The notes below the pieces were generated by a model. That model was given only the letters and a program-made list of their open reading frames with translations, did not search any database and was not told where the DNA came from. 64,000 nucleotides of DNA. It comes from Armatimonadota bacterium. Lineage in GTDB: Bacteria; Armatimonadota; UBA5829; DTJY01. The stretch spans positions 551-64,550 of the forward strand of contig JANYKG010000082.1 of NCBI GenBank assembly GCA_025358205.1. The letters are read 5' to 3'. Below are positions 3,843 to 62,366 of the stretch, one piece after another (within the stretch, counting starts at the first letter, position 1; each line of letters starts with the position of its first letter). The translations under genes and the position numbers were made by a program.

Positions 3843-3920
3843 AGGCCGCATTATTCACAAAAAGCGTGAATAATGCTCAGAAGGCCCTGGATTATTCAGT
3901 TCATGAATAATCCAGGCTAG
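3843..3920 (+). repeat. double-hairpin intergenic repeat, copy A (CCGCATTATTCAC...GTGAATAATGC-TCAGAAGG-CCCTGGATTATTCA...TGAATAATCCAGGCTAG)
   Basis: Hairpin 1 runs 3848-3858 / 3866-3876, followed by the conserved spacer TCAGAAGG. Hairpin 2 ends in CTAG at 3917-3920. The copy lies between trpS and the GNAT gene. Confidence 0.7.
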
Positions 3921-3931
3921 GGGAGCAGCAG

Positions 3932-4495
3932 ATGATCGGGCCGCGAATATCGGGCAATATGGTGAATCTTCGACCGGTCAAGGATACGGATCTGATTCGG
4001 CGGGCGAAGTGGCTGGCGGATGAGGAGACGGTAACCCATTTTACGGGAATTCCGCCTTCCGTGCGTTATCAGCTTCATGATGCGTTGAAGTGGAGGCGCG
4101 GCACTGAGTGCGATCCGCTTACCCTTGTATGGGCAATTGAGACCAAACAAGGTGAGCACATAGGTGACATTGACCTCCACGACATTGACCGCACTGAAGG
4201 CAGAGCCAGACTGACCATACTGATAGGGGACGCGATCTGTCGCGGCAAGGGATACGGCACCGATGCGTTGAGGGCCTTGATGGGATATGCATTCACCTCA
4301 ATGGGACTGGATGCCATTGATCTTAAGGTCTGCGATTTCAATTTGCAGGCGATTCGGTGCTATGAGAAATGCGGATTTGAGAAGTTGCCCTCGTGCCTGA
4401 ACGTACCCGGATTGCATCCCGGAGATATCTATATGACTGTTACCAAGGAGCGGGTCGCTGCTCTGCATTCGGATGGCAAAGTTGTTTACGCTTGA
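3932..4495 (+). CDS. GNAT-family N-acetyltransferase (RimJ/RimL-like)
   Basis: 187-aa ORF with the acetyl-CoA-binding motif RGKGYGTDALRALMGYAF. It overlaps the downstream ABC ATPase start by 23 nt. Confidence 0.7.
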   Translation: MIGPRISGNMVNLRPVKDTDLIRRAKWLADEETVTHFTGIPPSVRYQLHDALKWRRGTECDPLTLVWAIETKQGEHIGDIDLHDIDRTEGRARLTILIGDAICRGKGYGTDALRALMGYAFTSMGLDAIDLKVCDFNLQAIRCYEKCGFEKLPSCLNVPGLHPGDIYMTVTKERVAALHSDGKVVYA

Positions 4496-5762
4496 TCGCG
4501 CTGCTGTATCATACAATTCCACCCCGGTACTCAAGTCTATCTCCTTTGACGTGCGCAAGGGCGAGTTTGTCGGTATTATCGGCCCCAACGGTTCAGGAAA
4601 ATCCACACTTCTGAAGGCAATGGCGGGCGTCTTGTCGCCTGCTTCCGGTGGTGTGATGCTGGATGGCCGCGCTGTTTCACAGATACCCGGTCGCGAGTTA
4701 GCCAGACGCCTTGCCGTGGTTCCCCAGGATAACCCCATTACATTCGATTACACGGTGCTGGAGATAGTCCTGATGGGCAGGTCTCCACATTTGGGCAGGT
4801 TTCAAGTTGAGAGCGGGTCGGATTTCGACATCGCACAGGATGCCCTGCGGCGGACGAACCTGCTATCATTTGCTGACAGGAAGATCGGCGAACTGAGCGG
4901 CGGCGAGCGTCAGCGGGCGATGATAGCCCGTGCTCTGGCGCAGGAAACCGATATACTGTTCCTTGATGAGCCGACCGCGCATTTGGATATCAACTACCAG
5001 GTGGAGATTTTGCATCTGGCACGGCGCGAGAATCTGGAAACCGGGAAGACCGTGGTAGCCGTATTGCACGATCTGAACCTGGCGTCCGAGTTCTGTGACC
5101 GGCTGGTCATGCTGTGTGATGGGCGGGTTTTCGCGGACGGAACGCCTGAGGATGTGATAACGGCGGAGAACGTGCGGGAGGTCTACGGCACATCTGTGTG
5201 GGTCAGGCGTCATCCAACGTCCGGGCGTCCTTATGTGCTGTCACTCGGGAGCAGGGCGGTGGCATCCAGGCTTGCGGAGACCAGGGAACAGGGTCAACGG
5301 CTGAAGGTGCATGTTATCTGCGGCGGCGGAAGCGGCGGGGGCCTTTTTACAACCCTGTTGGAGATGGGTTGCGATGTGACAGCCGGGGTGATTAACATAG
5401 GCGATACCGACCAGGAGGCCGCGGAGGCGCTGGGGATTGAGTACGTGGAAGACGCGCCGTTTTCACCGATCTCGGAGCCGGCGGAGAAGGCGAATGCGCA
5501 GTTCATTGCTGCGGCTGATGCCGTGCTGGTGGCGGATGTGCCGTTCGGGTCCGGCAACCTGGCGAATCTGCGCGGCGCGGTGCGGGCGATGAATATCGGC
5601 AAGCGCGTGGGTCTCATGGGCGCAGTTGAATCATACGAGGAACGCGATTTTGCGGATGGGGAACTGGTGAGCGCTTTACGCAGTCTAATTGAGCGTGGGG
5701 CGGAAGTTCTGAAAACAGCCGATGAGCTGCGGGATTGGGTTGCTAAAACCAGGGGTCTATAG
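4473..5762 (+). CDS. ABC transporter ATP-binding protein (FecE/FepC/BtuD-like) with ~170-aa C-terminal extension of unknown function
   Basis: Walker A GPNGSGKST, ABC signature LSGGERQR, Walker B ILFLDEPT and an H-loop are present. Residues ~255-429 (VICGGGSGGG...NIGDTD...) are an extra domain. No permease or binding-protein gene is adjacent. Confidence 0.8.
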   Translation: MAKLFTLDRAAVSYNSTPVLKSISFDVRKGEFVGIIGPNGSGKSTLLKAMAGVLSPASGGVMLDGRAVSQIPGRELARRLAVVPQDNPITFDYTVLEIVLMGRSPHLGRFQVESGSDFDIAQDALRRTNLLSFADRKIGELSGGERQRAMIARALAQETDILFLDEPTAHLDINYQVEILHLARRENLETGKTVVAVLHDLNLASEFCDRLVMLCDGRVFADGTPEDVITAENVREVYGTSVWVRRHPTSGRPYVLSLGSRAVASRLAETREQGQRLKVHVICGGGSGGGLFTTLLEMGCDVTAGVINIGDTDQEAAEALGIEYVEDAPFSPISEPAEKANAQFIAAADAVLVADVPFGSGNLANLRGAVRAMNIGKRVGLMGAVESYEERDFADGELVSALRSLIERGAEVLKTADELRDWVAKTRGL

Positions 5763-5823
5763 TATAATTGACCGTGTGGTAAGGGATGTCTGTGCGGCGG
5801 AAATGAAGTGATCCAAACAGGCA

Positions 5824-5882
5824 AATGGCACGAAGGATGTGCGTTGTTCGTCCGTTCGTGCCATTCGTGTTTATTGTTTGTG
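5824..5882. terminator. putative bidirectional rho-independent terminator between the ABC ATPase gene (+) and rpmB (-)
   Basis: Perfect 11-bp stem AATGGCACGAA (5824-5834) / TTCGTGCCATT (5855-5865), followed by the T-rich tract CGTGTTTATTGTTTGTG. Confidence 0.5.
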
Positions 5883-5898
5883 TATGTCCAGCGGTTTT

Positions 5899-6114
5899 CT
5901 AGGCGGCCTTGACTACTTTGCCTGCCTTCATGCACTTGGTGCAGACCCTGATGGCCTTGTTTCCGTCAGCGCATACCGCTTTCACGGACTGCAGGTTGGG
6001 CAGCCATCTGCGCTTGGTTTTGGGAGCACGGAGTGCCCATGAACCGGAATGCTTGTGCCGAATATTCTGTCCGTACTGCGGGCCTTTACCGCAGATTTCA
6101 CACTTGATTGCCAT
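5899..6114 (-). CDS. rpmB: 50S ribosomal protein L28
   Basis: 71-aa translation MAIKCEICGKGPQYGQNIRHKHSGSWALRAPKTKRRWLPNLQ matches L28. It is the only confident minus-strand gene in the window. Confidence 0.9.
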   Translation of the reverse strand: MAIKCEICGKGPQYGQNIRHKHSGSWALRAPKTKRRWLPNLQSVKAVCADGNKAIRVCTKCMKAGKVVKAA

Positions 6115-6216
6115 TATGATAGACCTCCTCGGTTATGTGCGATGGAAGAGAGCATGTGGGCGCCGGTAAGGCACGCACTTGACTATAATATCATAACGGC
6201 GAACCGTTTTGCAATA

Positions 6217-6293
6217 CCCTGGCCTGCATTATGCACAAAGAGCATAATGCAGGGCCTTCTGAGCATTATTCACGCTTTTCGTGAATAATGCGG
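6217..6293 (-). repeat. double-hairpin intergenic repeat, copy B (reverse orientation, co-oriented with rpmB)
   Basis: Reverse complement reads CCGCATTATTCACGAAAAGCGTGAATAATGC-TCAGAAGG-CCCTGCATTATGCTCTTTGTGCATAATGCAGG. It lies in the divergent region between rpmB and the CBS-DUF1385 gene. Confidence 0.65.
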
Positions 6294-6304
6294 ATCTGAA
6301 TATC

Positions 6305-12528: not shown

Positions 12529-13317
12529 ATGCCTGGATTTCGGAAGACGCTTAAGCGGTGGATCAGGGATAGCTATGACTATCTCGGCCTGGTTTTGATA
12601 TACAGCTTTGTATGGTTCGGCGTGTTCCTGGCCGGCATGGGGCTGATCGTCGGAGTCGGCAGAACTGCACATCCGGGTGCGGTGGTCGGCATGAGTCTTG
12701 CGTTCATGGTGTTTGTGCTGTCTCCGCTGGCGGCTGGGGTGTATGCGGCAGCCAAGAAGATGGTGACGAGAGACGACCCGGCAGTGGCGGATGTGTTTCA
12801 CGGCTTCAGGGATTATTTCGCGGATGCATGGCGGCTGGGATTCTGGCAGTTGTTCATCACTCTTATGCTGGTCGCGAACGCGGTGTTTTATTTGCGCAAT
12901 CAAGGGTTGGGGTGGAAGGTGCTGGGCGTGCTGGTCGTTTACGCGTTCATCCTCTGGGCGATGAGCATGCTCTATCATTACCCCATACTCATCGAGCAGA
13001 AGCCGGGCGTGTTGAAGATCCTCAAGCGCGGATTCCTGCTCACACTGGACAATGCTGCCTTTACTCTCGGGGTGTTCTTTGTTATAATTCTGCTCACTTG
13101 CTTCACCGCAGCTACGCTCATCGGCCTGCCGCTGTTGTACCTTGGCATGGCGAGCATCCTTCAAACCAGGCTGCTGCGAGGCGTGTTTGTGAAATATGAT
13201 ATGCTGCCGCCGGAACGAGATTTCGGGTTTGAAGACGTTGATGATCCGGGTTTCAAACTGCCCGATCCTGTGAAACCGGAGGCGCTTGAAGTAGAAGGGG
13301 ATAAGACTGATGGCTGA
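12529..13317 (+). CDS. polytopic membrane protein of unknown function
   Basis: 262-aa ORF with several predicted hydrophobic helices. It overlaps the downstream kinase gene by 8 nt. Confidence 0.6.
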   Translation: MPGFRKTLKRWIRDSYDYLGLVLIYSFVWFGVFLAGMGLIVGVGRTAHPGAVVGMSLAFMVFVLSPLAAGVYAAAKKMVTRDDPAVADVFHGFRDYFADAWRLGFWQLFITLMLVANAVFYLRNQGLGWKVLGVLVVYAFILWAMSMLYHYPILIEQKPGVLKILKRGFLLTLDNAAFTLGVFFVIILLTCFTAATLIGLPLLYLGMASILQTRLLRGVFVKYDMLPPERDFGFEDVDDPGFKLPDPVKPEALEVEGDKTDG

Positions 13318-17075: not shown

Positions 17076-17525
17076 ATGAGGTACATGGGACTCGACGTGG
17101 GCGACAAAACCATAGGCGTGGCGCTGAGCGATGAAGTGGGGCTGACCGCCAATCCGCTGAAGGTGATCGCCAGGACCGGCAGTATCAAGCGCGAGATGGG
17201 CGAGATACGGCGCATCGTGGAGGAATCCGGGATAGGCCGCGTGATTGTCGGTATGCCTTACATGCTTGATGGCAGCGTGGGAATACAGGCCGAGAAGGTT
17301 CAGGAGTTCATAGGAGAGTTGACCAGGCGAGTCAGGGTTGAGGTAGAGACCATTGACGAGCGACTGACCACGATGGAGGCCGAGCGAGTGCTGATAGCGG
17401 CGGACCAGTCTCGTGAGAAGCGCAAGAAAGTGATAGACATGATGGCGGCGGCGGTTCTGCTGCGCGCATACATGGACAAAGAGAGTTATGCCAGGCGTGC
17501 TGAGGAGCGGGTGGATGAAGAGTAG
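17076..17525 (+). CDS. ruvX: Holliday-junction resolvase-like protein RuvX/YqgF
   Basis: ATG 17076 with RBS GGAGG 7 nt upstream. The N-terminus MRYMGLDVGDKTIGVALSD is canonical YqgF. The alaS-ruvX-mltG order is conserved synteny. Confidence 0.85.
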   Translation: MRYMGLDVGDKTIGVALSDEVGLTANPLKVIARTGSIKREMGEIRRIVEESGIGRVIVGMPYMLDGSVGIQAEKVQEFIGELTRRVRVEVETIDERLTTMEAERVLIAADQSREKRKKVIDMMAAAVLLRAYMDKESYARRAEERVDEE

Positions 17526-19984: not shown

Positions 19985-20013
19985 TTGCGCGTCAGGTTTC
20001 ACCATGCTATAAT
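19985..20013 (+). promoter_or_regulatory. sigma70-like promoter TTGCGC-17 nt-TATAAT upstream of pilB
   Basis: -35 at 19985-19990 and a perfect -10 TATAAT at 20008-20013, about 57 nt upstream of the pilB ATG. Confidence 0.45.
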
Positions 20014-20069
20014 GCTCTGGTTGAGTGCCAGATAATTGGACAGCCGTGGTTCGGGAGGCCGTTAAGGAT

Positions 20070-21860
20070 ATGGGAACAGCAAGAAGAGATATAGGCGATC
20101 TGCTCATCGAGGCGCAAGTGATTACGCTGGAGCATCTTACCGAAGCGAAGGAAGTGCAGAAGAGCGCGCCTGGTGATTTGGGTCAGATTATACTGGACTT
20201 GGGGTTTGCGAACTCGAAACAGGTTATGCAGGCGCGCGCGCGTCTGATGAATATACAGTTTGTTGATCTTGCCACTCAGAAGCTGGACCCTGCGGCGTTG
20301 GCTGCGGTACCGGAGCATGTGGTGAGACGTCACTGTGTCATCCCGGTGTTTAAGAACGGCAACCGCCTGATGGTGGCCATGAGCGACACACAGAACATCA
20401 AGGCCATGGACGACCTTAGAGTCGTAACTCGTGGTATGCAGGTAGTTCCCGCCCTCGCTCTTCCTGACGCGATAATCGAAGCCATAGAGCGGCATTACAA
20501 GGGCGGCGACGGCGACGGCGCCTCTGCTGCCACTTCAGAAAGCGGTCTGCCTGTACCACCGAACGTAAACACACTGGAGAATTCGATTGGCGGCGGGCTG
20601 GCAGGCGTAAAGGATGCCATCGAGTCGTATAAATCGCGTGACATTGGCGATGAAGAAGACCCGGACGCGGTGGCGCAGATATCCGAGCAGGCTCCAATTA
20701 TCCGTGTGGCCAACACTATTATTCAGCAGGCGGTTCAGGTGGGCGCCAGTGATATCCACGTGGAACCGGACAGGCGGCACGTGCGAGTGAGATACCGCGT
20801 TGACGGTGTGTTGCACGAAGAAATGACCATCCCTAAGTATATTCAGGCGCCGCTAATCTCCAGGTTCAAGATCATGGCTGAGATGAACATCGCCGAACGG
20901 CGCGTACCACAGGACGGACGCATCCCGGTTCGCAAAGACGGCAAGGACTATGACCTTCGCGTGAGCTGCCTTCCTACGATCTGGGGCGAGAAGATTGTAT
21001 GCAGAATCCTGGACAAGAGCAGCGTACTTCTGGGTCTGAACAAGCTGGGTTTCAACAACGAAAACCTGGCCAAACTGGAAGAGATCATCACCCAGCCTAA
21101 CGGTATGTTCCTATGCACAGGCCCTACCGGTTCCGGCAAGACCACCACACAGTACGCCGTACTTCACAAGATTAACTCCGTAGATAGAAACATCATCACT
21201 GTTGAAGACCCGGTTGAGTATCAGCTTTCAGGTATCTCTCAGGTTCACGTGAACGTGAAAGCCGGATTGACGTTCGGCGGCGCACTTAGGTCGTTTCTGC
21301 GCCAGGACCCGGATATCATCATGGTCGGAGAAATGAGAGACTTGGAGACCGCCGAGATCGCGGTTGAAGCGTCTCTGACCGGTCACCTTGTTCTCTCAAC
21401 TCTGCATACCAACAACGCTCCTTCCGCCGTTATCCGAATGGTTGATATGGGAGTGGAGCCTTATCTTATATCCGCGACCGTTCACGGCGTACTGGCGCAG
21501 AGGCTGGCGCGAAAGATTTGCGCTCAATGCGGAGAGGACTACCAGACACATGCGAGCGATTTGAGGGTGCTGGGATACGAACCCAAGGACAAGGATGAGA
21601 TGGTCACCCTGCGCAGAGGGCGGGGCTGCGAGGTCTGCCGCCATACCGGGTTCAAGGGCAGAACCGGTATCCACGAGTTGATGACCATGAACGATGAAAT
21701 CGCGGAACTTACCGTCCGTCGCGCGCCGCTGGCAGACATCCGAGAGGCAGCGAAGGCGAACGGTATGCATGACCTGCGAGACGATGGCCTTGAGAAGGTC
21801 ATGAGCGGAGTCACCACGATCGAAGAGGTCAAGAAGGTTGTATTCACCGCCGGTCACTAG
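20070..21860 (+). CDS. pilB: type IV pilus assembly ATPase PilB (GspE family)
   Basis: N-terminal GSPII_E_N-like domain, Walker A CTGPTGSGKTTT, Asp/His boxes and a tetracysteine motif (CAQC...CEVC). The stop TAG 21858-21860 lies inside the CTAG terminus of repeat copy C. Confidence 0.9.
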   Translation: MGTARRDIGDLLIEAQVITLEHLTEAKEVQKSAPGDLGQIILDLGFANSKQVMQARARLMNIQFVDLATQKLDPAALAAVPEHVVRRHCVIPVFKNGNRLMVAMSDTQNIKAMDDLRVVTRGMQVVPALALPDAIIEAIERHYKGGDGDGASAATSESGLPVPPNVNTLENSIGGGLAGVKDAIESYKSRDIGDEEDPDAVAQISEQAPIIRVANTIIQQAVQVGASDIHVEPDRRHVRVRYRVDGVLHEEMTIPKYIQAPLISRFKIMAEMNIAERRVPQDGRIPVRKDGKDYDLRVSCLPTIWGEKIVCRILDKSSVLLGLNKLGFNNENLAKLEEIITQPNGMFLCTGPTGSGKTTTQYAVLHKINSVDRNIITVEDPVEYQLSGISQVHVNVKAGLTFGGALRSFLRQDPDIIMVGEMRDLETAEIAVEASLTGHLVLSTLHTNNAPSAVIRMVDMGVEPYLISATVHGVLAQRLARKICAQCGEDYQTHASDLRVLGYEPKDKDEMVTLRRGRGCEVCRHTGFKGRTGIHELMTMNDEIAELTVRRAPLADIREAAKANGMHDLRDDGLEKVMSGVTTIEEVKKVVFTAGH

Positions 21861-21936
21861 CCCGCATTATTCATAAAAAGCATGAATAATGCTCAGAAGG
21901 TTGCGGATTATGCGGAACATGCATAATCCGCGCTAA
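21857..21936 (+). repeat. double-hairpin intergenic repeat, copy C
   Basis: Sequence CTAGCCCGCATTATTCATAAAAAGCATGAATAATGC-TCAGAAGG-TTGCGGATTATGCGGAACATGCATAATCCGCGCTAA. It begins at the pilB stop codon. Confidence 0.7.
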
Positions 21937-21984
21937 TTGCCGGTGCGGAGAAAAATGCCGCGGCACTGTACACGGAGGCATGAG

Positions 21985-23157
21985 TTGCAGGAAAGTAACA
22001 TAACGACACAGATGTCATCGAGGGCCAATGGCCGGGGTACATCTGTCGAAGATATTCACATAGATGATTTGCTCCGCCTGATCGTGGAGCGCGGCGCGTC
22101 CGACCTGCATCTGGCGGTGGGTTTGCCGCCGATCCTGCGCACGGACGGCCAACTGGTGCAGACCGCGTATGCATTCCTGACGCCTCAGGATACTCAGCGG
22201 CTGATGTACGACATTCTGACCGATGAGCAGGTGCAGCGGTTCGAGTCGGCATTCGAACTGGACTTTTCCTATTCCATTGAGAAGCTGTCAAGATTTCGCG
22301 TGAATATTTTCAAAGACAAAGGCACAGTTGCGGCCGCGTTCAGGGTCATCCCCCAGAGAATTCCGACAATCCGCGAACTTGGGCTTCCACTCGTCCTTGA
22401 GGATCTGACCCGAAAGCCCAGAGGACTCATTCTAGTCACCGGTCCTACCGGATCAGGAAAGTCTACCACCCTTGCCGCGATGCTGAATCTGATTAACACC
22501 GAGCGAAACGTTCATATCATCACCATCGAGGACCCGATTGAGTACCTGCACACCCACCGAAGCAGCGTTATCAATCAGCGCGAACTGGGATCAGACACTA
22601 AGTCGTTCTCGAATGCGCTCAGGTCATCGCTGCGCGAAGACCCGGATGTGATTCTCGTTGGTGAAATGCGCGACCTGGATACTATCTCCACCGCCATTAC
22701 GTGCGCTGAAACGGGTCACCTGGTGCTGGCTACGTTGCACACGAACAACGCGCCTCAGACGGTGGACCGTATGGTAGACGTTTTTCCGTCCGATCAGCAG
22801 GAGCAGATACGCTTCATGTTGTCCAACAACCTGGAAGCGGTGGTTTGTCAGCAACTGCTTCCGAGAGCGGGTATGCCGGGCCGAGTGTGCGCCATGGAGA
22901 TCATGATGGCGACACCGGCAATACGTAACCTGATTCGGGAAAGCAAGGCCCACCAGCTTACGTCTGTGATACAGACCAGCGCCAACGTGGGCATGCAGAC
23001 GATGGATCAATCGCTCAGGGATCTGTACCAGAAGGGTCTTATTTCCTACGACGAGGCGCTCACCCGGTGTATGAACCCGGATGAGTTCAAGACAATGGTA
23101 TCTACTACCACCACGCGCGGCGGACGACCGCAGGCAGCGCCGGGCGGCTCTCAGTAG
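21985..23157 (+). CDS. pilT: type IV pilus retraction ATPase PilT
   Basis: Walker A GPTGSGKSTT and PilT-type motifs are present. TTG 21985 is proposed as start because GGAGG lies 6 nt upstream. The alternative ATG at 22012 has no RBS. Confidence 0.85.
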   Translation: MQESNITTQMSSRANGRGTSVEDIHIDDLLRLIVERGASDLHLAVGLPPILRTDGQLVQTAYAFLTPQDTQRLMYDILTDEQVQRFESAFELDFSYSIEKLSRFRVNIFKDKGTVAAAFRVIPQRIPTIRELGLPLVLEDLTRKPRGLILVTGPTGSGKSTTLAAMLNLINTERNVHIITIEDPIEYLHTHRSSVINQRELGSDTKSFSNALRSSLREDPDVILVGEMRDLDTISTAITCAETGHLVLATLHTNNAPQTVDRMVDVFPSDQQEQIRFMLSNNLEAVVCQQLLPRAGMPGRVCAMEIMMATPAIRNLIRESKAHQLTSVIQTSANVGMQTMDQSLRDLYQKGLISYDEALTRCMNPDEFKTMVSTTTTRGGRPQAAPGGSQ

Positions 23158-23160
23158 GTT

Positions 23161-23239
23161 TGGACCGCATTATTCATGAACAGCATGAATAATGCTCAGA
23201 AGGCCGCAGATTATGCGGGACATGCATAATCCGCGCTAG
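23161..23239 (+). repeat. double-hairpin intergenic repeat, copy D
   Basis: Sequence GACCGCATTATTCATGAACAGCATGAATAATGC-TCAGAAGG-CCGCAGATTATGCGGGACATGCATAATCCGCGCTAG. It starts 4 nt after the pilT stop. Confidence 0.7.
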
Positions 23240-23278
23240 GACCGGATGGAGCATTTGGCTCCAAGGGAGTGATGTAAG

Positions 23279-24514
23279 ATGGCAACTTTTGCATATACAG
23301 TCAAAGACGCAGCGGGAACGATGAGGAAAGGCACCTCGGAAGGCGAGAACGAAGCCGTTGTGGTTCGTCGCCTGCAAGAGCAGGGGATGACGATCGTCAA
23401 CATCAAGCCGGGCAAAGCGGCCAAGGCCAAGTCCGGCGGCGGTGGGTTTGGCAGCGTCAAACTTGTTGACCTTTCCATTTTCTGTCGGCAGTTCTCTACC
23501 ATGGTTGACGCGGGTGTATCACTGGTGCGGTGTCTTACCGTTCTTAGCGAACAGTCAACCAGCCCCAAATTGCGACGAATCATCACCGAGATCGAGCAGG
23601 AAGTTCAGAGCGGACAGACGCTCTCGAAGGCGATGGCGAGGTATCCGGGCGTCTTCAACAGCCTGTTCATCGGTCTGGTCAAAGCAGGTGAGGTCGGCGG
23701 CGCGTTGGAGGAAAGCCTGCAGCGGTTGTCCGGATTCCTTGAGAAGGACCTGCAGCTCAGACGCAAAGTCAAAGGCGCCATGACGTATCCTACAATCGTT
23801 CTCGTAGTTGCGGTGACCATCGTCATAGGTCTGGTTACTTTCATAGTTCCGCAGTTTATGACCCTTTTCACCGACCTAGGCATGAAGCAAACGGACATGC
23901 CCAGCATGACTCGGTCGCTGATGCAATTCAGTAATTTCCTCACTACCAAGTGGTGGATATGCTTGCTCGTCGTCATTTCGTTTGTGGTTGGCATCAAGAT
24001 GTTTGGGAATACTAAAGTAGGACGCAGAGTTCTTGACCGCGTCAAACTAAAAGCGCCGGTCTTTGGTCCATTGAACCACAAAGTGTGCCTGGCCAGGTTC
24101 TCCCGGACCCTCGCCACATTGCTGTCGAGCGGTGTACCCATTCTTTCGGCCATGGAGACGGTGGCAGGCACGGTGGCCAATGAGATTCTTGGTGACGCGA
24201 TTTTGAACGCGCGGACCAGAATCCGTGAAGGTGACCGGATTGGTGAACCGCTGCAGAAGAGCAAGCTGTTCCCCCCGATGGTAGTGCAGATGATCAGCAT
24301 CGGCGAGGAATCCGGTTCGCTGGACAACATGCTTATGAAGGTGGCTGACTTCTACGAGGACGAGGTGGATGCGGCGCTGGAAAGCCTGACGTCCGCTATT
24401 GAACCTATCATGATCGTTGTTCTGGGTAGCGCTGTAGGATTCATCGTAATCGCTATGTTCAGCCCGCTTCTGGCGGTCATCTCTAACCTGAGTTCCGGCG
24501 GCGGAACCAACTAG
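23279..24514 (+). CDS. pilC: type IV pilus inner-membrane platform protein PilC (GspF family)
   Basis: Two T2SSF-like repeats with transmembrane segments. RBS AGGGAG. The stop TAG 24512-24514 lies inside the CTAG of copy E. Confidence 0.9.
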   Translation: MATFAYTVKDAAGTMRKGTSEGENEAVVVRRLQEQGMTIVNIKPGKAAKAKSGGGGFGSVKLVDLSIFCRQFSTMVDAGVSLVRCLTVLSEQSTSPKLRRIITEIEQEVQSGQTLSKAMARYPGVFNSLFIGLVKAGEVGGALEESLQRLSGFLEKDLQLRRKVKGAMTYPTIVLVVAVTIVIGLVTFIVPQFMTLFTDLGMKQTDMPSMTRSLMQFSNFLTTKWWICLLVVISFVVGIKMFGNTKVGRRVLDRVKLKAPVFGPLNHKVCLARFSRTLATLLSSGVPILSAMETVAGTVANEILGDAILNARTRIREGDRIGEPLQKSKLFPPMVVQMISIGEESGSLDNMLMKVADFYEDEVDAALESLTSAIEPIMIVVLGSAVGFIVIAMFSPLLAVISNLSSGGGTN

Positions 24515-24591
24515 CCCGCATTATTCACGAAGAACGTGAATAATGCTCAGAAAGGCCCTGCAATATGCCGGACGTGCATAATGCAGGCTAG
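24511..24591 (+). repeat. double-hairpin intergenic repeat, copy E (CTAG at both ends)
   Basis: Sequence CTAGCCCGCATTATTCACGAAGAACGTGAATAATGC-TCAGAAAGG-CCCTGCAATATGCCGGACGTGCATAATGCAGGCTAG. Confidence 0.7.
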
Positions 24592-24614
24592 CCCGGAAAG
24601 TATAAGAGTAGATC

Positions 24615-40900: not shown

Positions 40901-43900
40901 ATGGACGATGATCCGGATTCGGTGATTGATGCCCCGGGGACGACCGGAGGCAAGAACGGCTATTCATGCTTCTATGCGGTATGCGAGTATACGCTGGATG
41001 GTTCATCTTCCGGCAAAGCGCAGACTCCGGGGTCCATGTTCAATATCACGGCGAGAGAGATACCCAATTCGCCCAACGCCAGCAGCTTGGACATCCCCGT
41101 GCCGCACGCTCTGACCGGCGCAACTCCTGATCTGAATCCGGCCCAGGAGTTCGCGATCAACAATCCGATAGGCGTGCTGACGTACAATGCGCCGTACACC
41201 AGCGTCGCCCAGAGCTCGCCTGTTGACTCGATCGGCATGGATCCTGCTAACCGACTGACGACGAAGCGCGATCTGGCCGATGCGATGGTGAACGGTAACT
41301 TGGTTGCGCCTCCGGTAATTTGGGGTGGATACACGCCTCATAATAGGCTTTCGGAAACCCGGACGATCGCCATCGCGGACCGGAGTCTGCTGTCTGTGAG
41401 CGGGCGCAGAATCAGCAAGTTCCGGGCGGAACGTCATGATATGAGATGGACGGGCGCTATCCCGCAGGTTATTAACGAGCTGCCGTGGGAGCGCAATCCG
41501 TCCAATACTGCTGCGAATATGCCAAACTCCAGTGAGGATTACCCGGACATTGACCTGCGGCAGATTAAAGTGCGCCTGCTTTCCAACGGGACTGATCCGT
41601 CCCAGAGCGCTGTGGACCTTCGTAAAGGGATAACGACCGCTTTTCCCGCAGCCGGAGCCCCTTGGAATATGGTTGATCCGGTCGGCTTGTCCGCCCTGAA
41701 CCCGGTGAGCTTTGCGGTGCAAGTTCCACAGTTCCAGCCGCCGAACCTGCCGTGGTCGGGTAACCCATCAGGAACACGGGCTGACACCGGCTATACCAGC
41801 TATGTTTATGCATATATAGACTCCAACAACAACGGCATGATGGACAGGCCCGCAGGGCTTGGCATCGGGCAGCTCATAAGTTCCGCGGTTACAGGCACCA
41901 GGGCGGAGGCGTTCCGCATGCTTGAGGTGCAGGTACATGTGCCCGCGGACTACAGGGCGCAGATAGAAAATCAGCGCGTGAACATAGGCGAGGTGCCACA
42001 GGGGTTTGGCTACACGGCGAAAAGCGGTGTTCCATGGGTGTTTGCGCCGAATCTGGTGCCTGATCCGATGTATGGCGTGCTTGCGCCAGCCGGATTTGGC
42101 GAGTGGTTCAAGCCGCTGACCATCCGCAACACAGGCAATGTGAACCTTGTGAATGTTGGAATGCTGAGAACGGACATGGTGAGCGACACGGTTCAGCAGC
42201 CGGTCATAGATGGTACCGGTGCGGTGATTCCCGGCTCCGGATTCTATATTCCAGCACAATCTCCCTCTGCCAATCCATGCCTGGTTTCTACGGTTGATGA
42301 CAGCGGTTACCTGAATGGTGCAGGGTTTATGACCAGTGTACCCCCGGCGATGCTCTCAGCGTTAAGACCGCCATCACGGACGTTCCACAAGGCGAGGGTA
42401 GGGGAGTCTGCCCCGGAATTGAGACTGCCGGACTATACGTCTTGGGCGCCTGCGATTCCGCAGGTTCCGCAGGTTCCCGCGATAAGCGTGGCGGTGCCGT
42501 TGGGAACGCCCACGGGCACGTACTACGGGAAGGTTCAGCTTTCCGAAAAAGGTAATGCCGTCAGCAATCCGGTGGACGTGGTGGTTACGTGCAATGAGTC
42601 ACGGATTACGGGCGGCAACACGCTCCCTGTGCCGAATCTGACGCATCTGGACAATCCAAGTACGCCGGGAATGACCGGCGTGAGCGGCACCCCTGCGGCC
42701 TTCCGAAACCCGGCAACCGGAAACGTGCTGTTCTTCTGGTCAAGCTCCAGGTATCCGGATGTCACGATAAACAGCACGGCGCAACCGACCAGCTCTGATC
42801 CGGCATACCTGTACTTCAGCAAGCTTGAAGCGCAGACCAATGGTGAGTTCGGGCTATCAACGGCTGCTCCGGCCCAGTGGTGGGCGCCGACGACGACGAC
42901 ATCGGTGTTTCCGAAACCATCGAGAATCAATGATTTCTTCCCATCGGCGACAACTGCGGACCCGACCTGGGGTGCGGTTGGGAACATCATACCGGGCAGT
43001 GTGAAGTTCGGCAGCCCCACGGTGGCGGTGGATAAGGTCAACAAGAAGTCATACCTGCTCTTTACGGGGCAGGCCGGCAAGACGGACCCGAGATACAAAA
43101 CGGAAGCGAACTACACGACCGGCGCTCGAAATACCCAGGAGTTCCGCGCGTACTACACGGAGATCAACGGCGAAACGGTTGACGAGGGCAATGTGTACTC
43201 CACATCGCCGAACAATACTACGGAGCAGATTCACGGCGACTGGGCGACACCGAAGTTCGGTGTGCGCGGCGGTATAATGATTCGCGCCGCAGGAGACACC
43301 CCGGAGCTTTGGAACTTCTGGTACGGCGGCAGTAGCGGCAAGTGGCGGATATACTACAACGTCAAAGCGAACCCGTCCACGCCTCCCAGCCCTACCAATC
43401 AATGGACGAACGAAGCGCTTTTGCCGATACCCAAGGGGTTGAGTTCAGTGTCAGAGCCGTCGCCGGTGTTCCATTACTTCATAGATAAGACGACAGGCGA
43501 GTTCACCGAGACCGGCAACGAGTTCATGGTTACGTATTCCGGCATGTCCGTGTTCCACAAGAACAGCGATATCTACATGAGTAGATACATATCGCAGATG
43601 CCCACGACGGGCATCAGACAGGGAAATTCCAAGCCTGTTGACCTGGCGCTGATGCCTCAGCGTGCGAACCTGATACCAGAGGTGAATGACCCGGCGACCT
43701 CCGGGACGCCTCTGCTGGGTGAGAAGTTGACGCGTGATCCGGCTACCAGCGTGTGGTACTCCAAAGATGTTGACTGGCTGGCTGATGATGTCAGTGGTGT
43801 GGTGACCGTTGCAAACCCAAGAGATTTCGCGGTCTTTGTAAGACTTGATCCGACGGACCCGGCATCGGTCTATCAGCTTAACGTGGGCCAGACGGACCGC

Positions 43901-44794
43901 GACGCGTCAACCGGGGCGATAGTCTACAACTACGGTGGAGGAACGGCGGTTGAGAACACGCTGAGGACCCTATTCCGCGCGGTAGTGATCAACCCTGCAG
44001 ACGGCACGGTAAAGTTCATGAAAGCGCCGAACGGTAAGGCTCTTGTGGTTGCGAGGTATTTCCCCAAGGCGTACCGGCTGACTACGGACGGCGTGGCTGA
44101 CTCTAACCCTTGCGCGGTGATGGACGACGACGTGAATCCCAGGTATAGCAGCACGAATACCACCAATCTGCCGTTCTTTATGCCGAATGGCAGTCCCGAG
44201 CCGGTGCCTACGGATCGCCTATGGGTGTTCTGGCGCAGACCGGCGATGGATAAGACCGGCACCGGCATATACTACAAGGCGCAACGTTACATGGTGCAGC
44301 TCAACTCTCAGATGGGGCTGGACGTGAAGGCGTCGGGAGCCTTCACACCGTCGGTGGCATCAGTGATGGGTGTGGATCCAGTTTCTGGTACGAGCGCTAC
44401 TCTGAAGTTTCCGGTGGAGATAGACTGGGTGAAGAACAGACTGTATTTCGCTAGCGCGGATGGCAGGGACAAGATTCTGCACGGCACGGACGCGAACGGC
44501 AACAATGTGTATATTTCGTATCCTAAGCATGTGAAAGTAACTTATACTGATTCCAAGCAGAATGTTGTGACCGATGAAGACCACTACGTCCAATATGCCG
44601 ACGAGGATATCAGTCAGGCCGGCAAGACGTTTGGCAACCTTACGAGTCTGATGGTGAACGAAGGCCAGGTGAATGCGTTCAAGGACCCGTTCTCAAATAG
44701 ACTGTGGGTTTTCTGGACCAGCACCCGGTCCGGCAATTCCGATGTGTACTATGAGACTATAAGTCCCAGAATCATCGGCAAAGAATATAGATAA
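37997..44794 (+). CDS. giant secreted PQQ-like beta-propeller / beta-sandwich-module protein (2265 aa)
   Basis: ATG 37997 has GGAGG 11 nt upstream. The signal peptide is MKTRIAACALLALLICALGSSALGQ. PQQ-like blades occur (GQVYVLDADTGAHVWN, GHIYAINPDGTPKWVY, GTLYTVDGASG). A ~150-aa module (TWTF...LVVADxMKL) is duplicated near the N-terminus. Confidence 0.75.
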   Translation: MKTRIAACALLALLICALGSSALGQDQWPMLRHDNARTGLAVGGALSTFRPAPTWVFPAPETSTYTVDNGDAAFSKTGTWNDTPLNGVAPYLVEGAVPYLWTPTGASATATAEWTFTFNGGAYTMRGTSAKFMVFVWVPSPGAGETPQHCEDAHYTVELTNGATGVTTTIGHYTLDQTSGGGWQNLPNSPSLLVQKTDTVVVKLSNVTERKDDTGNLVVSQVLADAVMLKTDTGMVFASPAASTTLPLVISASTEFASVARGGNFGNANIGAVYGIGAEVNSGIVASAVDDRGMMKWRYPAGNNDWIAGGISSSPTLTTALGSEKVVAAGVDGQVYVLDADTGAHVWNGPGYFDENMTLSGSWNPYTGAGVRGADSQTAQSVKVPAAATATATWTFSPITPGTYDAYAWIPPSGSEMFVQDARYTDLKSTDPTAKAKVYQGGGGFWALVCKGFKSTGNTTIKLTNETEGDASNLVVADEMKLVPADVQSFDFSSPVVDGSGYIYIGSAGSAGRVLKLKSGQSDPVWTYPSTSDAPIGSIHASPAIGPDGTIYVGSADGHIYAINPDGTPKWVYPNPSGTPAALPEISSTTAVTDLSGKTYVYFSTGAASSGGSSGDEGKVYAIQDNGQDAVALQWTYPSSGQLGAFVYSSPLIMELASGNGKPQVVAGSTNGTLYTVDGASGIDNQVPQRMSVALNGLINSSPAGTYVTFPTYADRNVVTLPLPVRTTAAPMAFVGSGSRIYGVDLTLPLAAPATWVPKDWWWDLLGNVISSPAVTKNRIYAGDTAGYTWAFSTGLAGGGGQEGWNTELGPMPETSGSDHTAGGRDAKPEVDVFVKSDWDVFRRDYLEPAEHSDGNGTSKDWFRSSEIRKHARDHGATRPGTYQMEWGEDMVIVVWNLIDPNRSNPNAPNTWKRRFDSSDGTSHPAPGWTHDYRGRVEISIKGHAPGAASASEEKITLSDRQIDNFTDMDDDPDSVIDAPGTTGGKNGYSCFYAVCEYTLDGSSSGKAQTPGSMFNITAREIPNSPNASSLDIPVPHALTGATPDLNPAQEFAINNPIGVLTYNAPYTSVAQSSPVDSIGMDPANRLTTKRDLADAMVNGNLVAPPVIWGGYTPHNRLSETRTIAIADRSLLSVSGRRISKFRAERHDMRWTGAIPQVINELPWERNPSNTAANMPNSSEDYPDIDLRQIKVRLLSNGTDPSQSAVDLRKGITTAFPAAGAPWNMVDPVGLSALNPVSFAVQVPQFQPPNLPWSGNPSGTRADTGYTSYVYAYIDSNNNGMMDRPAGLGIGQLISSAVTGTRAEAFRMLEVQVHVPADYRAQIENQRVNIGEVPQGFGYTAKSGVPWVFAPNLVPDPMYGVLAPAGFGEWFKPLTIRNTGNVNLVNVGMLRTDMVSDTVQQPVIDGTGAVIPGSGFYIPAQSPSANPCLVSTVDDSGYLNGAGFMTSVPPAMLSALRPPSRTFHKARVGESAPELRLPDYTSWAPAIPQVPQVPAISVAVPLGTPTGTYYGKVQLSEKGNAVSNPVDVVVTCNESRITGGNTLPVPNLTHLDNPSTPGMTGVSGTPAAFRNPATGNVLFFWSSSRYPDVTINSTAQPTSSDPAYLYFSKLEAQTNGEFGLSTAAPAQWWAPTTTTSVFPKPSRINDFFPSATTADPTWGAVGNIIPGSVKFGSPTVAVDKVNKKSYLLFTGQAGKTDPRYKTEANYTTGARNTQEFRAYYTEINGETVDEGNVYSTSPNNTTEQIHGDWATPKFGVRGGIMIRAAGDTPELWNFWYGGSSGKWRIYYNVKANPSTPPSPTNQWTNEALLPIPKGLSSVSEPSPVFHYFIDKTTGEFTETGNEFMVTYSGMSVFHKNSDIYMSRYISQMPTTGIRQGNSKPVDLALMPQRANLIPEVNDPATSGTPLLGEKLTRDPATSVWYSKDVDWLADDVSGVVTVANPRDFAVFVRLDPTDPASVYQLNVGQTDRDASTGAIVYNYGGGTAVENTLRTLFRAVVINPADGTVKFMKAPNGKALVVARYFPKAYRLTTDGVADSNPCAVMDDDVNPRYSSTNTTNLPFFMPNGSPEPVPTDRLWVFWRRPAMDKTGTGIYYKAQRYMVQLNSQMGLDVKASGAFTPSVASVMGVDPVSGTSATLKFPVEIDWVKNRLYFASADGRDKILHGTDANGNNVYISYPKHVKVTYTDSKQNVVTDEDHYVQYADEDISQAGKTFGNLTSLMVNEGQVNAFKDPFSNRLWVFWTSTRSGNSDVYYETISPRIIGKEYR

Positions 44795-48653: not shown

Positions 48654-48775
48654 TGAGCGCACAACGATCCGGGTCGGCAAAGAATAATCGTGACGGGTAA
48701 GAACATTTGGCCGACAGAAGTCGTCTTAGTATCGATAGTCTACAGATTTCACGATGGCGGAAGGAGAATTTTGCC

Positions 48776-49423
48776 ATGAGTAAGTTGCGAAGCATTCTGA
48801 TGGTAGTTCTGATTTTGATGGCCTTTGCTAGTGCAGTGTTTGCGCAAACGAGCACGAACGCAGAGGTCGAGAAGCGTGTATCGCTTCAGTTCAAGGATGT
48901 GCCTATCGGAAACGCGATAGCCATTCTCTTTGAGGGCATGAACTTCTCTGTGGAACCAGGGGTGCAGGGAACCGTGACAGTGAATTTGATCGATGTGGCG
49001 TTCCCCGAGGCTCTTCAAGCAGTACTGAAGGCGGCAAACCTTACGGCGCGCAAAGAGACCGGCGTATACTACATCGGCCCGAAGAAAGATTTGTCGCAGG
49101 ATATGTCACAGCAGCCGGTTGTAGAAGTTCCCGAAGTCGCGGTTGAAAGAACGAAGATACCCGAAAAATTGCTCATCGGATTTGCGGATGTGCAGGAAAT
49201 CGGCGGCTATCTTAACGCTCAGATCGGCAGTTCCCAGCGTAACCAGAGCGGTGGTATGATGGGCGGTGGTATGATGGGCGGCGGCATGGGCGGCGGCATG
49301 GGCGGCATGGGCATGGGCGGCATGGGCGGCGGCGGATATGGCGGCGGCATGGGCGGCGGCATGGGTGGCGGCATGGGTGGCGGCATGGGCGGCGGTATGG
49401 GCGGCGGTATGCCCCGCTGGTAG
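48776..49423 (+). CDS. secretin N-terminal (STN)-domain protein with C-terminal Gly-Met repeat tail
   Basis: ATG 48776 with AAGGAG RBS. The signal peptide is MSKLRSILMVVLILMAFASAVFAQ. The STN-like region VSLQFKDVPIGNAIAILFEGMNFSV...TVNLIDVAFPEALQAVL is followed by a (GGGM)n tail of about 55 aa. Confidence 0.6.
   Translation: MSKLRSILMVVLILMAFASAVFAQTSTNAEVEKRVSLQFKDVPIGNAIAILFEGMNFSVEPGVQGTVTVNLIDVAFPEALQAVLKAANLTARKETGVYYIGPKKDLSQDMSQQPVVEVPEVAVERTKIPEKLLIGFADVQEIGGYLNAQIGSSQRNQSGGMMGGGMMGGGMGGGMGGMGMGGMGGGGYGGGMGGGMGGGMGGGMGGGMGGGMPRW
49250..49411 (+). repeat. tandem 12-nt coding repeat (GGCGGCATGGGC-like) encoding (GGGM)n
   Basis: About 13 near-identical units lie directly head-to-tail inside the STN-domain gene. 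Confidence 0.7.
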
Positions 49424-51269: not shown

Positions 51270-51477
51270 CTATACGCAATTGAATAATGTCTGCCGTAGA
51301 CCGCAGGTGTTCACGGACTTAAGGGGTGAAGACCCGCCTGCCGAGGCTTGGAGCCGTTCTCGATATATTATGTCGAGTGCGTTTTTCTTGAAGCAAGGGG
51401 ATCCCCGGTGTCTACGGTGATCCCTTTATTATTTTATGGGGTGGGGTATATACCCACCGACCGAGGAGGTGAAATAC
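51270..51477 (+). promoter_or_regulatory. rplJ (L10) leader region with hairpins and a U-tract attenuator-like element
   Basis: About 200-nt untranslated leader. It contains CTCGATATATTATGTCGAG followed by TGCGTTTTTTC and a GGGATCCCCGGTGTCTACGGTGATCCC hairpin. This is consistent with an L10(L12)4 autoregulatory leader by analogy, which is an inference. Confidence 0.45.
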
Positions 51478-61063: not shown

Positions 61064-61093
61064 TAAATATCACAAAAAGTACACAGCATGCGG

Positions 61094-61123
61094 TTGACAA
61101 CGGATACCGTGTTTGTGTATACT
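61094..61123 (+). promoter_or_regulatory. sigma70-like promoter TTGACA-18 nt-TATACT for the rpsL-rpsG-fusA operon
   Basis: -35 at 61094-61099 and -10 at 61118-61123. Confidence 0.5.
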
Positions 61124-61314
61124 AGTCAGGTTCGATGGCACAAGTCGCAGCATATTGGTAATGCTGAACCAGTTGGGGTCTCCGAAATTGTGGAGACAAG
61201 GTTTTATTAACCGAAGCAGCGATCATGATACGAGGGGGGCAATGACAGAAAGAAACACCTCCTAACCGGTGTGTTTGAAAGAATTTTCAATTCTGCCACA
61301 GGTATGTCTCATTG

Positions 61315-61344
61315 CCCTTCGAGTGTGTGTCGAAGGGTTTTTTG
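61315..61344 (+). terminator. intrinsic terminator / attenuator in the rpsL leader
   Basis: Stem CCCTTCGA (61315-61322) / TCGAAGGG (61330-61337) with a 7-nt loop and a run of 6 T. It lies 68 nt upstream of the rpsL ATG and downstream of the promoter. Confidence 0.5.
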
Positions 61345-61411
61345 TTTGTAAGGAAGTTGGCGTTACCGGAAAGCCGGTTTCGTACTAAGCGACATCCAAG
61401 AAAGGAATGCT

Positions 61412-61783
61412 ATGCCGACAATCAGTCAGTTGGTTCGAAAAGGGCGGCAGCGGATCAAGAAGAAGAGCAAGACCCCCGCGCTGAAGGGTACTCCTCAGAA
61501 GAGGGGCGTCTGCCTTATCGTGCGAACGGCCTCCCCTAAGAAGCCGAACTCAGCTCTGCGCAAGATCGCCAGAGTCAGGCTCACAAACGGGATGGAGGTC
61601 ACCGCGTACATTCCTGGTGTTGGACATAACCTCCAGGAGCACTCCGTTGTTCTCGTTCGCGGCGGAAGAGTCAAGGATCTCCCTGGTGTACGCTACCACA
61701 TCGTTCGCGGAACTCTTGATGCTGCAGGCACCAAGGACCGCAAGACCAGCCGATCAAAATACGGGGCCAAGAGGCCTAAGTAG
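61412..61783 (+). CDS. rpsL: 30S ribosomal protein S12
   Basis: The sequence [13 protein letters not shown]...[10 protein letters not shown] is canonical S12. Confidence 0.97.
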
Positions 61784-61798
61784 TTCGGAGGAGCAATA

Positions 61799-62269
61799 AT
61801 GCCGAGAAAAGGACCTGTACGCAAGCGAGAGATCGCACCCGATCCCGTCTTCAAGAGCCGACTGGTTGCGAGATTCATCAATCGGCTTTTCACTCGCGGC
61901 AAGAAGAGCGTTGGTGAGAAGATATTCTACGGGGCATTGGAAGCGATCGAAGAGAAGACCGGCAAGCCGGGCATCGAAGTCTTCCAGAGAGCAGTGGATA
62001 ACTGCACTCCCATGGTAGAAGTTAAGCCGAAGAGAGTCGGCGGCGCTACCTACCAGGTGCCTATAGAGGTAAGACCTGAGCGAAGACTGGCACTGGCAAT
62101 TCGCTGGTTGGTTACGTATGCGCGGAAGCGGTCAGGCAAGACGATGATTGAGAAGCTTTCGGCAGAGTTCATGGACGCAGCGGCAGGCACCGGTGCATCT
62201 GTGAAGAAGAAGGAAGACGGATACAAGATGGCTGAGGCTAACAAAGCCTTCGCCCACTATCGCTGGTAA
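61799..62269 (+). CDS. rpsG: 30S ribosomal protein S7
   Basis: 156-aa ORF with canonical S7 sequence. Confidence 0.97.
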
Positions 62270-62296
62270 GTAGATTTGACCGAGCCGATCCAGCCG

Positions 62297-62366
62297 CTAG
62301 GCCGCATAATTCACTAGAAAAGTGAATAATGCTCTGAAGGCCTTTCGTTGATGCGGAAGACGCACA
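62297..62366 (+). repeat. double-hairpin intergenic repeat, copy H (diverged), between rpsG and fusA
   Basis: Sequence CTAGGCCGCATAATTCACTAGAAAAGTGAATAATGC-TCTGAAGG-CCTTTCGTTGATGCGGAAGACGCACAATG. Hairpin 1 has one mismatch and hairpin 2 is degenerate. Confidence 0.55.

Follow-up and report, generated by a model that had tools for sequence, protein, structure and literature searches.

Double-hairpin repeats in an Armatimonadota genome are probably miniature transposable elements that duplicate a 4-bp target

The DNA analyzed here, called the window throughout, is a stretch of 64,000 nucleotides from an Armatimonadota bacterium. Its genes are almost all on the plus strand, and the GC skew is positive throughout. 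Spread along it, in the spacers between genes that include rpmB, rpsG, and the pilus operon pilB-pilT-pilC-pilD, are nine copies of a family of repeats of about 80 bp that form two hairpins. This count includes single-hairpin and degenerate units and is far above chance. Together, the copies cover about 1% of the window. We find that they are probably copies of a non-autonomous transposable element, that is, a miniature inverted-repeat transposable element (MITE). The source contig, JAYSNH010000139.1 (metagenome-derived assembly GCA_043723985.1), is 97,344 bp long, and 74 of its 97 kb were read, including the window region. In these 74 kb, 10 copies were found, a count that falls to 9 if the marginal unit at 33466-33510 is left out.

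The copies were described with a covariance model built from the copies themselves, and their scores are given in bits. Copy A (3841-3920, plus strand, 99 bits) is a full two-hairpin element, consisting of TTAG (3841-3844), hairpin 1 (3848-3876), the spacer TCAGAAGG (3877-3884), hairpin 2 (3886-3916), and CTAG (3917-3920). Its neighbors, both encoded on the plus strand, are a class I (Trp/Tyr-type) tRNA synthetase gene and a GNAT gene. Copy B (6217-6298, minus strand, 94 bits) is also full, with degenerate flanking 4-mers (CAGA and CCAG), and it occupies a divergent spacer, with rpmB on the minus strand (5899-6114) to one side and a plus-strand CBS-domain gene, starting at about 6305, to the other. 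Three full copies on the plus strand are found in the pil operon: copy C (21857-21936, 96.5 bits) in the pilB-pilT spacer, copy D (23160-23239, 97 bits) in the pilT-pilC spacer, and copy E (24511-24591, 94 bits) in the pilC-pilD spacer. The left CTAG of copy C (21857-21860) includes the pilB stop codon TAG, and its right 4-mer is CTAA (21933-21936). Copy D has a degenerate TTGG on the left and CTAG on the right (23236-23239), and copy E has CTAG on both sides, at 24511-24514, where it includes the pilC stop codon, and at 24588-24591.

The remaining copies are less complete. Copy F (28502-28560, plus strand, 33 bits) is truncated and degenerate, with a mismatched hairpin 1 and part of hairpin 2, and lies between two pilin-like or unknown genes. 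Its left CTAG (28502-28505) includes the stop codon of the upstream gene (26586-28505). Copy G (33382-33420) is a single-hairpin form whose orientation is not assignable, flanked by CTAG and CTGG, in which the left-end arm CCGCATTACTCAC pairs with the right-end-type arm GTGCATAATACGG. It has a marginal score, and the genes on either side of it are large and unannotated (968 and about 1,440 aa). An extra unit at 33466-33510 (plus strand, 15 bits) is a degenerate single hairpin, CCTGCATTGTTCATGGAGAACGTGAATCACGCAGG. Copy H (62297-62377, plus strand, 78 bits) has a left CTAG and the spacer TCTGAAGG; its hairpin 1 contains one mismatch, and its hairpin 2 is decayed. It lies between rpsG and the next gene, probably fusA, which extends past the window edge. 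Loci outside the window that were used for comparison are given below by L numbers. One of these, L111, contains a further full copy on the minus strand at 6091-6170 (contig positions 29342-29421, 77 bits). This copy is about 3.2 kb before the window start, in a divergent spacer 19 nt ahead of a plus-strand gene start.

A first-pass annotation had listed eight copies in the window, and the motif was found at all eight positions; the unit at 33466-33510 was missing from that list. The hairpin 1 pattern, GCATTATTCA-N9-TGAATAATGC, has five exact matches in the window compared to 0 in 100 shuffles. The right arm with the spacer, TGAATAATGCTCAGAAGG, has six matches at no more than one mismatch, compared to 0 expected. 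The covariance model gave 78-99 bits for 3841-3920, 6219-6298 (minus strand), 21857-21936, 23160-23239, 24511-24591, and 62297-62377, and 33 bits for 28502-28560; 33382-33420 and 33466-33510 were marginal. Copies F, G, and H are truncated or degenerate, in line with what the earlier listing implied. Folding energies of the full copies range from -33 to -42 kcal/mol (z = -4.6 to -7.6), and 9 of the window's 19 strongest local inverted repeats are members of the family. The elements have no coding capacity (stops in all three frames of copy E, read by eye). Open reading frames (ORFs) that span an element, as around copy B, are mechanical calls in an intergenic spacer.

The mobile unit is about 72 bp (in elements of 72-80 bp) and contains two hairpins linked by TCAGAAGG. 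The left terminal repeat is CCCGCATTATTCA, and the right one, read inward, is CCTGCATTATGCA or CCGCGGATTATGCA, making the two imperfect inverted repeats of each other. CCCGCATTATTCA and CCTGCATTATGCA are identical at 11 of 13 positions; terminal inverted repeats are therefore present, as the first-pass annotation had claimed. The family end was written in degenerate form as CCYG[CGA]ATTATTCA. Each terminal repeat is followed by a loop of 5-9 nt and then by its own inverted copy, which results in the two hairpins.

The history of these copies can be read in relatives. Three loci, L101, L103, and L104, have PilC identities of 81-83% to the window, and the PilC homologues with a named source are from Armatimonadota. 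The gene order from alaS through the pil genes (pilB-pilT-pilC-pilD) is common to the window and the three relatives. No element is present in the pilB-pilT, pilT-pilC, pilC-pilD, or later spacers of L101, L103, and L104. Between pilC and pilD, all three relatives have a single AACTAG and then an unrelated spacer, while the window reads AACTAG-CCCGCATT...GCAGG-CTAG-CCCGG. For pilB-pilT, the sequence is CACTAA or CACTAG in the relatives and CACTAG-element-CTAA-TTG in the window. Since the relatives' spacers are empty at the same sites, the window copies are insertions. In copies C, E, and F, the upstream gene ends on a stop codon that lies within the left CTAG.

Other palindromic insertions, unrelated to the family, are found in some of these pil-operon spacers of the relatives (L101 8622-8672 and ~17200-17275; L103 2119-2172; L104 8535-8590). 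One has arms GGTAGCCGCAGGCTTTATGCCTGCG, and one is a diverged relative of hairpin 1 (GCATTTCTCCACGA...TCGTGAGGAATGC). The lineage is evidently prone to palindromic insertions. A separate hairpin, GATAACCGCGTGC...GCAGGCGGTTATC, lies at 26449-26480, directly 3' of a pilin-like gene. A similar hairpin, GGTAACCG...CGGTTACC, follows the same pilin-like gene in L101 (~13100-13135) and L103 (~5355-5390), the two relatives covered at this place, unlike the mobile elements. This hairpin may be a genuine terminator or attenuator of the major pilin gene.

CTAG is depleted in the window, with 41 sites observed compared to 78 expected under a second-order Markov model, and 9 of the 41 sites are located at elements. 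The association with the repeats reported in the first pass is therefore real, and so is the depletion. CTAG had been taken as a boundary motif of the repeat. It is instead a duplicated 4-bp target, which can also be CTAA, CTAT, TTAG, or TAAG. The evidence for this comes from a larger set of copies. A scan with the hairpin 1 pattern, using one genome per species, found the same hairpin in many copies in the Armatimonadota metagenome-assembled genome (MAG) JBBRAE01. In this sister family, hairpin 1 forms the first half, and the second hairpin differs (GCTTTATTCG...CGAATAAAGC). Copies occur outside the window on the source contig (L111), on metagenome contigs, and in this sister MAG.

The flanks of the sister family were counted in 27 two-hairpin copies, of which JBBRAE01 contributed 24 and the unclassified MAG CAZPYA01 contributed 3. 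In 20 of them, the same 4-mer stands on both sides, namely CTAA in 13, CTAG in six, and CTAT in one. The other seven are near-misses, and the inverted combination CTAA/TTAG was seen in 0. At the fourth position, the left and right bases are the same in 23 of the 27 (permutation p < 1e-4). L085 and L027, which are almost the same in sequence, differ at one loop base and at both flanks, and the agreement of the flanks is therefore independent of internal subfamily markers. A metagenome scan for the window's own subfamily found only four short contigs; the metagenome copy L106 of this subfamily has TAAG...TAAG flanks in the same register. The flanking 4-mers are direct repeats that vary together, which identifies them as a 4-bp target-site duplication at a YTAR-type target, outside the element. 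The link between CTAG and the repeats is also accounted for in this way. A 4-bp YTAR duplication is a documented signature of IS5 (PMC5009759). IS701-family elements make an exact, highly conserved 4-bp duplication and are widely spread across phyla (PMC2266710). MITEs that a DDE transposase moves in trans leave this kind of duplication as their signature, which suggests that these elements are moved in the same way. A right 4-mer of CTGG with a left CTAG, a difference of A to G, recurs in four independent copies (window 33417-33420, L105, L107, and L049).

Two other types of insertion make different predictions for these flanks. If these were MITEs of the IS630/Tc1-mariner type, which duplicate TA as Correia and RUP do, CTAG would be the insertion site and the outer C and G would be target bases. 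The CTAG flanks do have a central TA, and copy C (CTAG/CTAA) and some CTAA..TTAG single hairpins fit the variable terminal bases of such an element. However, the left fourth base would then belong to the element and the right one to the flank, and yet the two agree in 23 of 27 copies with three values. The TAAG...TAAG copy also keeps a 4-bp register and not a TA register. We consider this type of element very unlikely here. An element derived from IS200/IS605 was also considered and was rejected, since the right 4-mer varies with the left between L085 and L027. Such an element would be expected to have a constant right end and to insert 3' of a fixed tetra- or pentanucleotide with no duplication.

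Covariation of the stems was examined in an alignment of nine copies, namely the five full window copies, copy H, and three metagenome copies. Paired cells make up 96.4% of the total, and seven pairs are altered on both sides. None of 500 shuffles reached the observed score, and slid controls were 24-40% paired. The stem covariation proposed in the first pass is therefore real on these nine copies. The covarying changes separate subfamilies (A; B, E, and the metagenome copies; C and D) and thus represent few independent events. The mutual identity of the window copies is about 80-93%. The spacer TCAGAAGG is unchanged in seven of the nine copies, with one extra A in copy E and TCTGAAGG in copy H, and within the window lineage it is as conserved as the stems. 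It had been described as nearly invariant, which stands, and as unpaired, which does not always hold, since in copies A and H its GGCC is base-paired to the left end.

The sister family shows what happens to copies after they are in place. Its hairpin 2, which is unconstrained by the search pattern, has 10 unpaired cells, three one-sided (wobble) cells, and one compensated cell, and this lone compensated cell is a between-genome change. The mostly uncompensated decay of resident copies argues against host selection on each hairpin. Selection for pairing acts on multiplying lineages and not on resident copies, a pattern that would be predicted for a mobile element but not for a host RNA. The proposal that structure is under selection at each locus is therefore not supported, since the relatives' sites are empty and old copies decay without compensation (10 + 3 compared to 1).

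Stem covariation would also be expected if the hairpin itself were the substrate of movement. This is the case for an element of the REP/REPIN type, in which the hairpins would be REPs with a CTAG tag and the doublet would be copied as single-stranded hairpin DNA by a single-copy REP-associated tyrosine transposase (RAYT). Each unit is a 30-35 bp palindrome, and the units are found both singly and paired in inverted orientation with the tags outward, at high copy density. The loops of the hairpins flip, and the orientation bias is on a strand with a strong positive GC skew. All of this would fit a REP-type element. The tag, however, is a two-sided direct repeat that changes in concert between near-identical copies. 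It is thus a target duplication, and RAYT/REP and IS200/IS605 systems make none. The published tags are GTAG and CGTC, and CTAG is unmentioned in that survey (PMC3733652). A Y1/HUH transposase motif scan of L001-L104 (8-kb blocks in the case of other genomes) and the window, which served as the check for a RAYT, found no match. The same ends are also found on classical MITEs of 220-250 bp. An origin of this type is therefore unlikely.

In an alignment of the sister family, the loops of some copies are reverse-complemented with the arms and flanks unmoved (seen at L018, L088, L090a, and L064). The loop of hairpin 2 reads CTTCA or TGAAG, and that of hairpin 1 reads GAGTAG or GCTTCT. The loop appears to have been inverted by exchange between the hairpin arms.

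Every copy had been described in the first pass as having the orientation of the local transcript. In the window, all six orientable copies between same-strand genes are co-oriented with them (one-sided p about 0.016). In the sister genome, where the ORF calls are crude, 11 copies are co-oriented, four are anti-oriented, five are in convergent spacers, and three are in divergent spacers. Orientation relative to GC skew is 18 to 9 in this genome and is inseparable from gene orientation. Both minus-strand copies of the source contig (B and L111 6091-6170) are in divergent spacers beside a plus-strand gene start. Copy B had been said to follow rpmB, but it is upstream of the rpmB start and 7 nt before the plus-strand CBS-domain gene. 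Because it is in a divergent spacer, its co-orientation with a transcript is not established. Co-orientation is a real bias, at about 17 of 21 overall, and is no rule, being roughly 2-3 to 1 in the sister genome. Selection after insertion may be the cause of this bias.

A terminator role had also been suggested. The hairpins have no T-tract on their 3' side, an intrinsic terminator scan of 20000-34000 detected no element, and several copies are inside operons, all of which speaks against this role. The tails read CTAGGGGAGC, CTAATTGCCG, and CTAGCCCGGA. No element matched Rfam in the window at the gathering threshold, and no match was found over 21800-24650 at E <= 1. In the literature, the arm sequences matched only unrelated primers. 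With no match in Rfam or the literature, the sequence is indeed unrecognised, as the first-pass annotation had stated. The sole Rfam match in the window at the gathering threshold is an L10 leader (RF00557, 47.7 bits) at 51276-51439 on the plus strand, upstream of rplJ at 51436.

These results bear on another explanation, that the double hairpin is a host cis-regulatory RNA, kept as an mRNA stabiliser, a processing site, or a modulator of translational coupling, and that mobility is only its origin. Copies do lie between genes that share a direction and are probably transcribed together (pilB-T-C-D; rpsG and the gene after it), and their RNA folds are very stable. The co-orientation in tandem contexts (6/6 in the window, 11 compared to 4 in the sister genome) and the spacer that is unchanged in seven of nine copies would also fit an RNA. 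However, the relatives keep the operon without elements in the same spacers, copies F, G, and H are decayed, and changes within a genome are mostly uncompensated. The spacer of the sister lineage differs (TCTGTTAGCGAAA), there is no T-tract, and Rfam gave no match even at E <= 1. Copy B and the additional copy before the window start each run antisense to the plus-strand gene beside them. We therefore regard this explanation as quite unlikely, and no evidence supports a host regulatory function.

The same ends are found on other elements. The 13-nt end CCYGCATTATTCA is found on elements of three sizes, namely single hairpins of 35 bp, double hairpins of 80 bp, and MITEs of 220-250 bp, and it was seen in Armatimonadota, Nitrospirota, Methylomirabilota, and Bacteroidota. 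The same end, at 13-19 nt, is found on ordinary MITEs with unrelated interiors. On the viral contig L110, found in a narrower end scan, the arrangement is CTAG-CCCGCATTATTCATGAACG...(244 bp)...CGTTCATGAATAATGCGGG-CTAG. L115, from a broader scan of viral contigs, has a 226-bp element between TTAA and TTAA. A relative of about 221 bp, TTAA-CCCGGATTATTCA...GAATAATTCAGG-TTAA, is present in Persicobacter sp. JZB09, and BLAST of the L115 element found 29 matching places across the replicons of this strain. The two broader viral-contig scans returned mostly chance matches in coding DNA. Single-hairpin forms, consisting of two ends and a loop of 5-11 nt with CTAG, CTAA, or TTAA flanks, are found in MAGs of Nitrospirota, Methylomirabilota, and Bacteroidota. 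The linker of the sister family retains a YTAR 4-mer (TCTG-TTAG-CGAAA). The two-hairpin element looks like two minimal single-hairpin units that were fused and are moved by their outer ends. Many matches to related elements are at the ends of MAG contigs.

Two sets of matches stand apart from these. At L005 2126-2927, in JBBRAE01, two inverted elements, each with its own CTAA duplication, flank two small ORFs that were assigned by eye as a hicA/hicB-like toxin-antitoxin pair. In Streptomyces, a perfect palindrome of 28 nt with the hairpin 1 arms, GCATTATTCATCAYRYGATGAATAATGC, is found in L003, L011, L016, L020, L023, and about 15 other loci. It is present in single copy by a TTGACG box, and several of these sites adjoin an apparent ABC-ATPase N-terminus (by eye), with the box upstream of the gene. 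The Streptomyces matches were rejected as members of the family, as they are single orthologous sites near the TTGACG box, probably an operator.

A parent transposase was sought in the loci. An all-against-all ORF comparison of 98 loci found no multi-copy protein in the Armatimonadota loci and only orthologous genes in Streptomyces. No lone terminal arms suggestive of IS ends were seen in the fetched loci. A phmmer search with E. coli IS5 InsH found no match among all six-frame ORFs of the loci. A Pfam scan of 134 neighbouring ORFs covered the 25 most frequent families only and was thus blind to a single transposase. BLAST of the 80-bp element and the L110 MITE against plasmids, and of the L115 MITE against plasmids and phages, returned only unannotated Persicobacter MITE copies. 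A resemblance between GCGAATAAGCGGGG of IS5 and CGAATAAAGCGGG of the sister family was rejected, since it concerns one IS5 end only and has the opposite polarity.

Several observations weigh against a MITE moved by a DDE transposase. An autonomous element or a transposase with these ends was not found in the ~0.9 Mb of loci. The ends of the family are unlike those of IS5 (GGAAGGTGCGAATAAG, read from E. coli K-12), and the published IS701 end consensus, ---YACT-Y--YR (taken from the literature), does not fit CCCGCATTATTCA. Compensatory change in the inner arms would not be needed if the enzyme simply binds double-stranded ends. In the window, the flanks are identical only at copy E; copies A, C, D, and G are 1-2 bases off, and copy B has no matching flanks. 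That the other window flanks are partly decayed fits the greater mutual divergence of these copies. Several single-hairpin units have inverted flanks, with CTAA..TTAG in L004 and L021 and ATAG..CTAT in L038. Lastly, the non-palindromic duplication is CTAA in 13 cases and TTAG in 0, read in element orientation, a bias that a symmetric transposase complex would not be expected to show. The element seems to insert in a set orientation relative to the asymmetric target.

The repeats share features with several known systems. Like DDE-derived bacterial MITEs, they are small and non-coding, have terminal inverted repeats, are dispersed in many copies, and are present or absent between relatives. As with IS5-type targets (YTAR, PMC5009759), the direct duplication is 4 bp, of CTAG, CTAA, or TTAA-type targets. 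Unlike IS5-type MITEs, they have no parent IS that was found, and their ends are CCYGCATTATTCA instead of GGAAGGTGCGAATAAG. The exact 4-bp duplication and the wide distribution among phyla are shared with the IS701 family (PMC2266710), and no IS701 transposase was linked to the elements. They also differ from usual MITEs, since each end is paired with an adjacent inverted copy to give two hairpins instead of one long foldback, the smallest basic units measure only about 35 bp, and the asymmetric CTAA is used in one orientation (13 to 0).

The first-pass annotation had compared the repeats to MITE, Correia, and REP-BIME elements. The MITE comparison is upheld, and the repeats are indeed dispersed small palindromes of the MITE/REP kind. 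The duplication argues against the other two readings, since it is 4 bp here and theirs is none or TA. Like the REP, BIME, and REPIN sequences of E. coli, Pseudomonas, and Stenotrophomonas, the units are palindromes of 30-35 bp, single or in inverted pairs with a short linker, and they are intergenic, high in copy number, and divided into subfamilies with compensatory stem changes. REPs have a one-sided GTAG or CGTC tag and no target duplication (PMC3733652). In contrast, the 4-mer of this family (CTAR) is on both sides, direct, and variable, and no RAYT was found in the sampled DNA. The window family is also unrelated in sequence to Correia and RUP, occurs in different phyla, and has a 4-bp duplication. 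Correia of Neisseria and RUP of Streptococcus pneumoniae are intergenic MITEs of about 100-150 bp with inverted ends, often co-transcribed and forming RNA hairpins. Both duplicate TA and form a single long foldback.

The favored reading, a MITE moved in trans, suggests the following mechanism. A transposase encoded elsewhere would bind both element ends, open a YTAR-type target, in most cases CTAG or CTAA, by a staggered cut of 4 bp, and join the element to it, and repair would duplicate the 4 bp. The enzyme would probably be of the DDE type, given the IS5-like target and duplication and the precedent of IS701. C-TAG and C-TAA often hold a stop codon, and intragenic insertions are lost, so the surviving copies would be found just 3' of genes. 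In three window copies, the left duplicate still serves as the stop codon. The stems would covary between subfamilies because only intact elements with paired ends multiply, while resident copies decay.

Some other features of the window lie outside this family. Two very large genes (about 1,440 and 2,292 aa) at 33548-44794 have weak or no Pfam matches. They come after the pilus genes, and this order is conserved in the relatives. Tandem repeats of 12 and 15 nt (GGCGGCATGGGC-like) at 49250-49417 lie within the ORF 48707-49423 and would encode a Gly/Met-rich low-complexity tail. At 1772-1819, three to four tandem 9-nt units (TGACCATAA-like) are found in an ORF-dense region near a HicB-like small gene, which was called through L111 at window ~2198-2371.

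As MITEs, the repeats are a known kind of genome parasite, in a family that we did not find described, and not a new regulatory RNA. The class of mechanism is well known, and the understanding of such elements is unchanged. What is of interest is the tiny palindromic units, the fusion into a double hairpin, the regeneration of stop codons, the asymmetric target, and the use of one end in at least four phyla. The family provides a case of insertion into C-TAG or C-TAA stop codons where the stop is regenerated by the duplicate. For annotation, these elements should be masked as mobile DNA and should not be labeled as terminators or non-coding RNAs; they account for a fifth of the window's CTAG sites and most of its strong hairpins. 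For Armatimonadota, a phylum known mostly from MAGs, they represent a high-copy repeat at about one per 7 kb. Related elements are often at MAG contig ends, and such repeats therefore probably break assemblies. The same 13-nt end in at least four phyla suggests that one transposase specificity is widely spread. A broader proposal, which we hold to be doubtful, is that palindromic elements of 35-80 bp form a superfamily across phyla, with the one 13-nt end CCYGCATTATTCA and the 4-bp YTAR duplication, and that they are moved by a transposase family not yet linked to MITEs, possibly a single-copy resident. If this were true, the superfamily would be a DDE counterpart of the REPIN-RAYT partnership outside Proteobacteria. 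Its enzyme would insert in one orientation at the asymmetric CTAA and could land on stop codons without destroying them.

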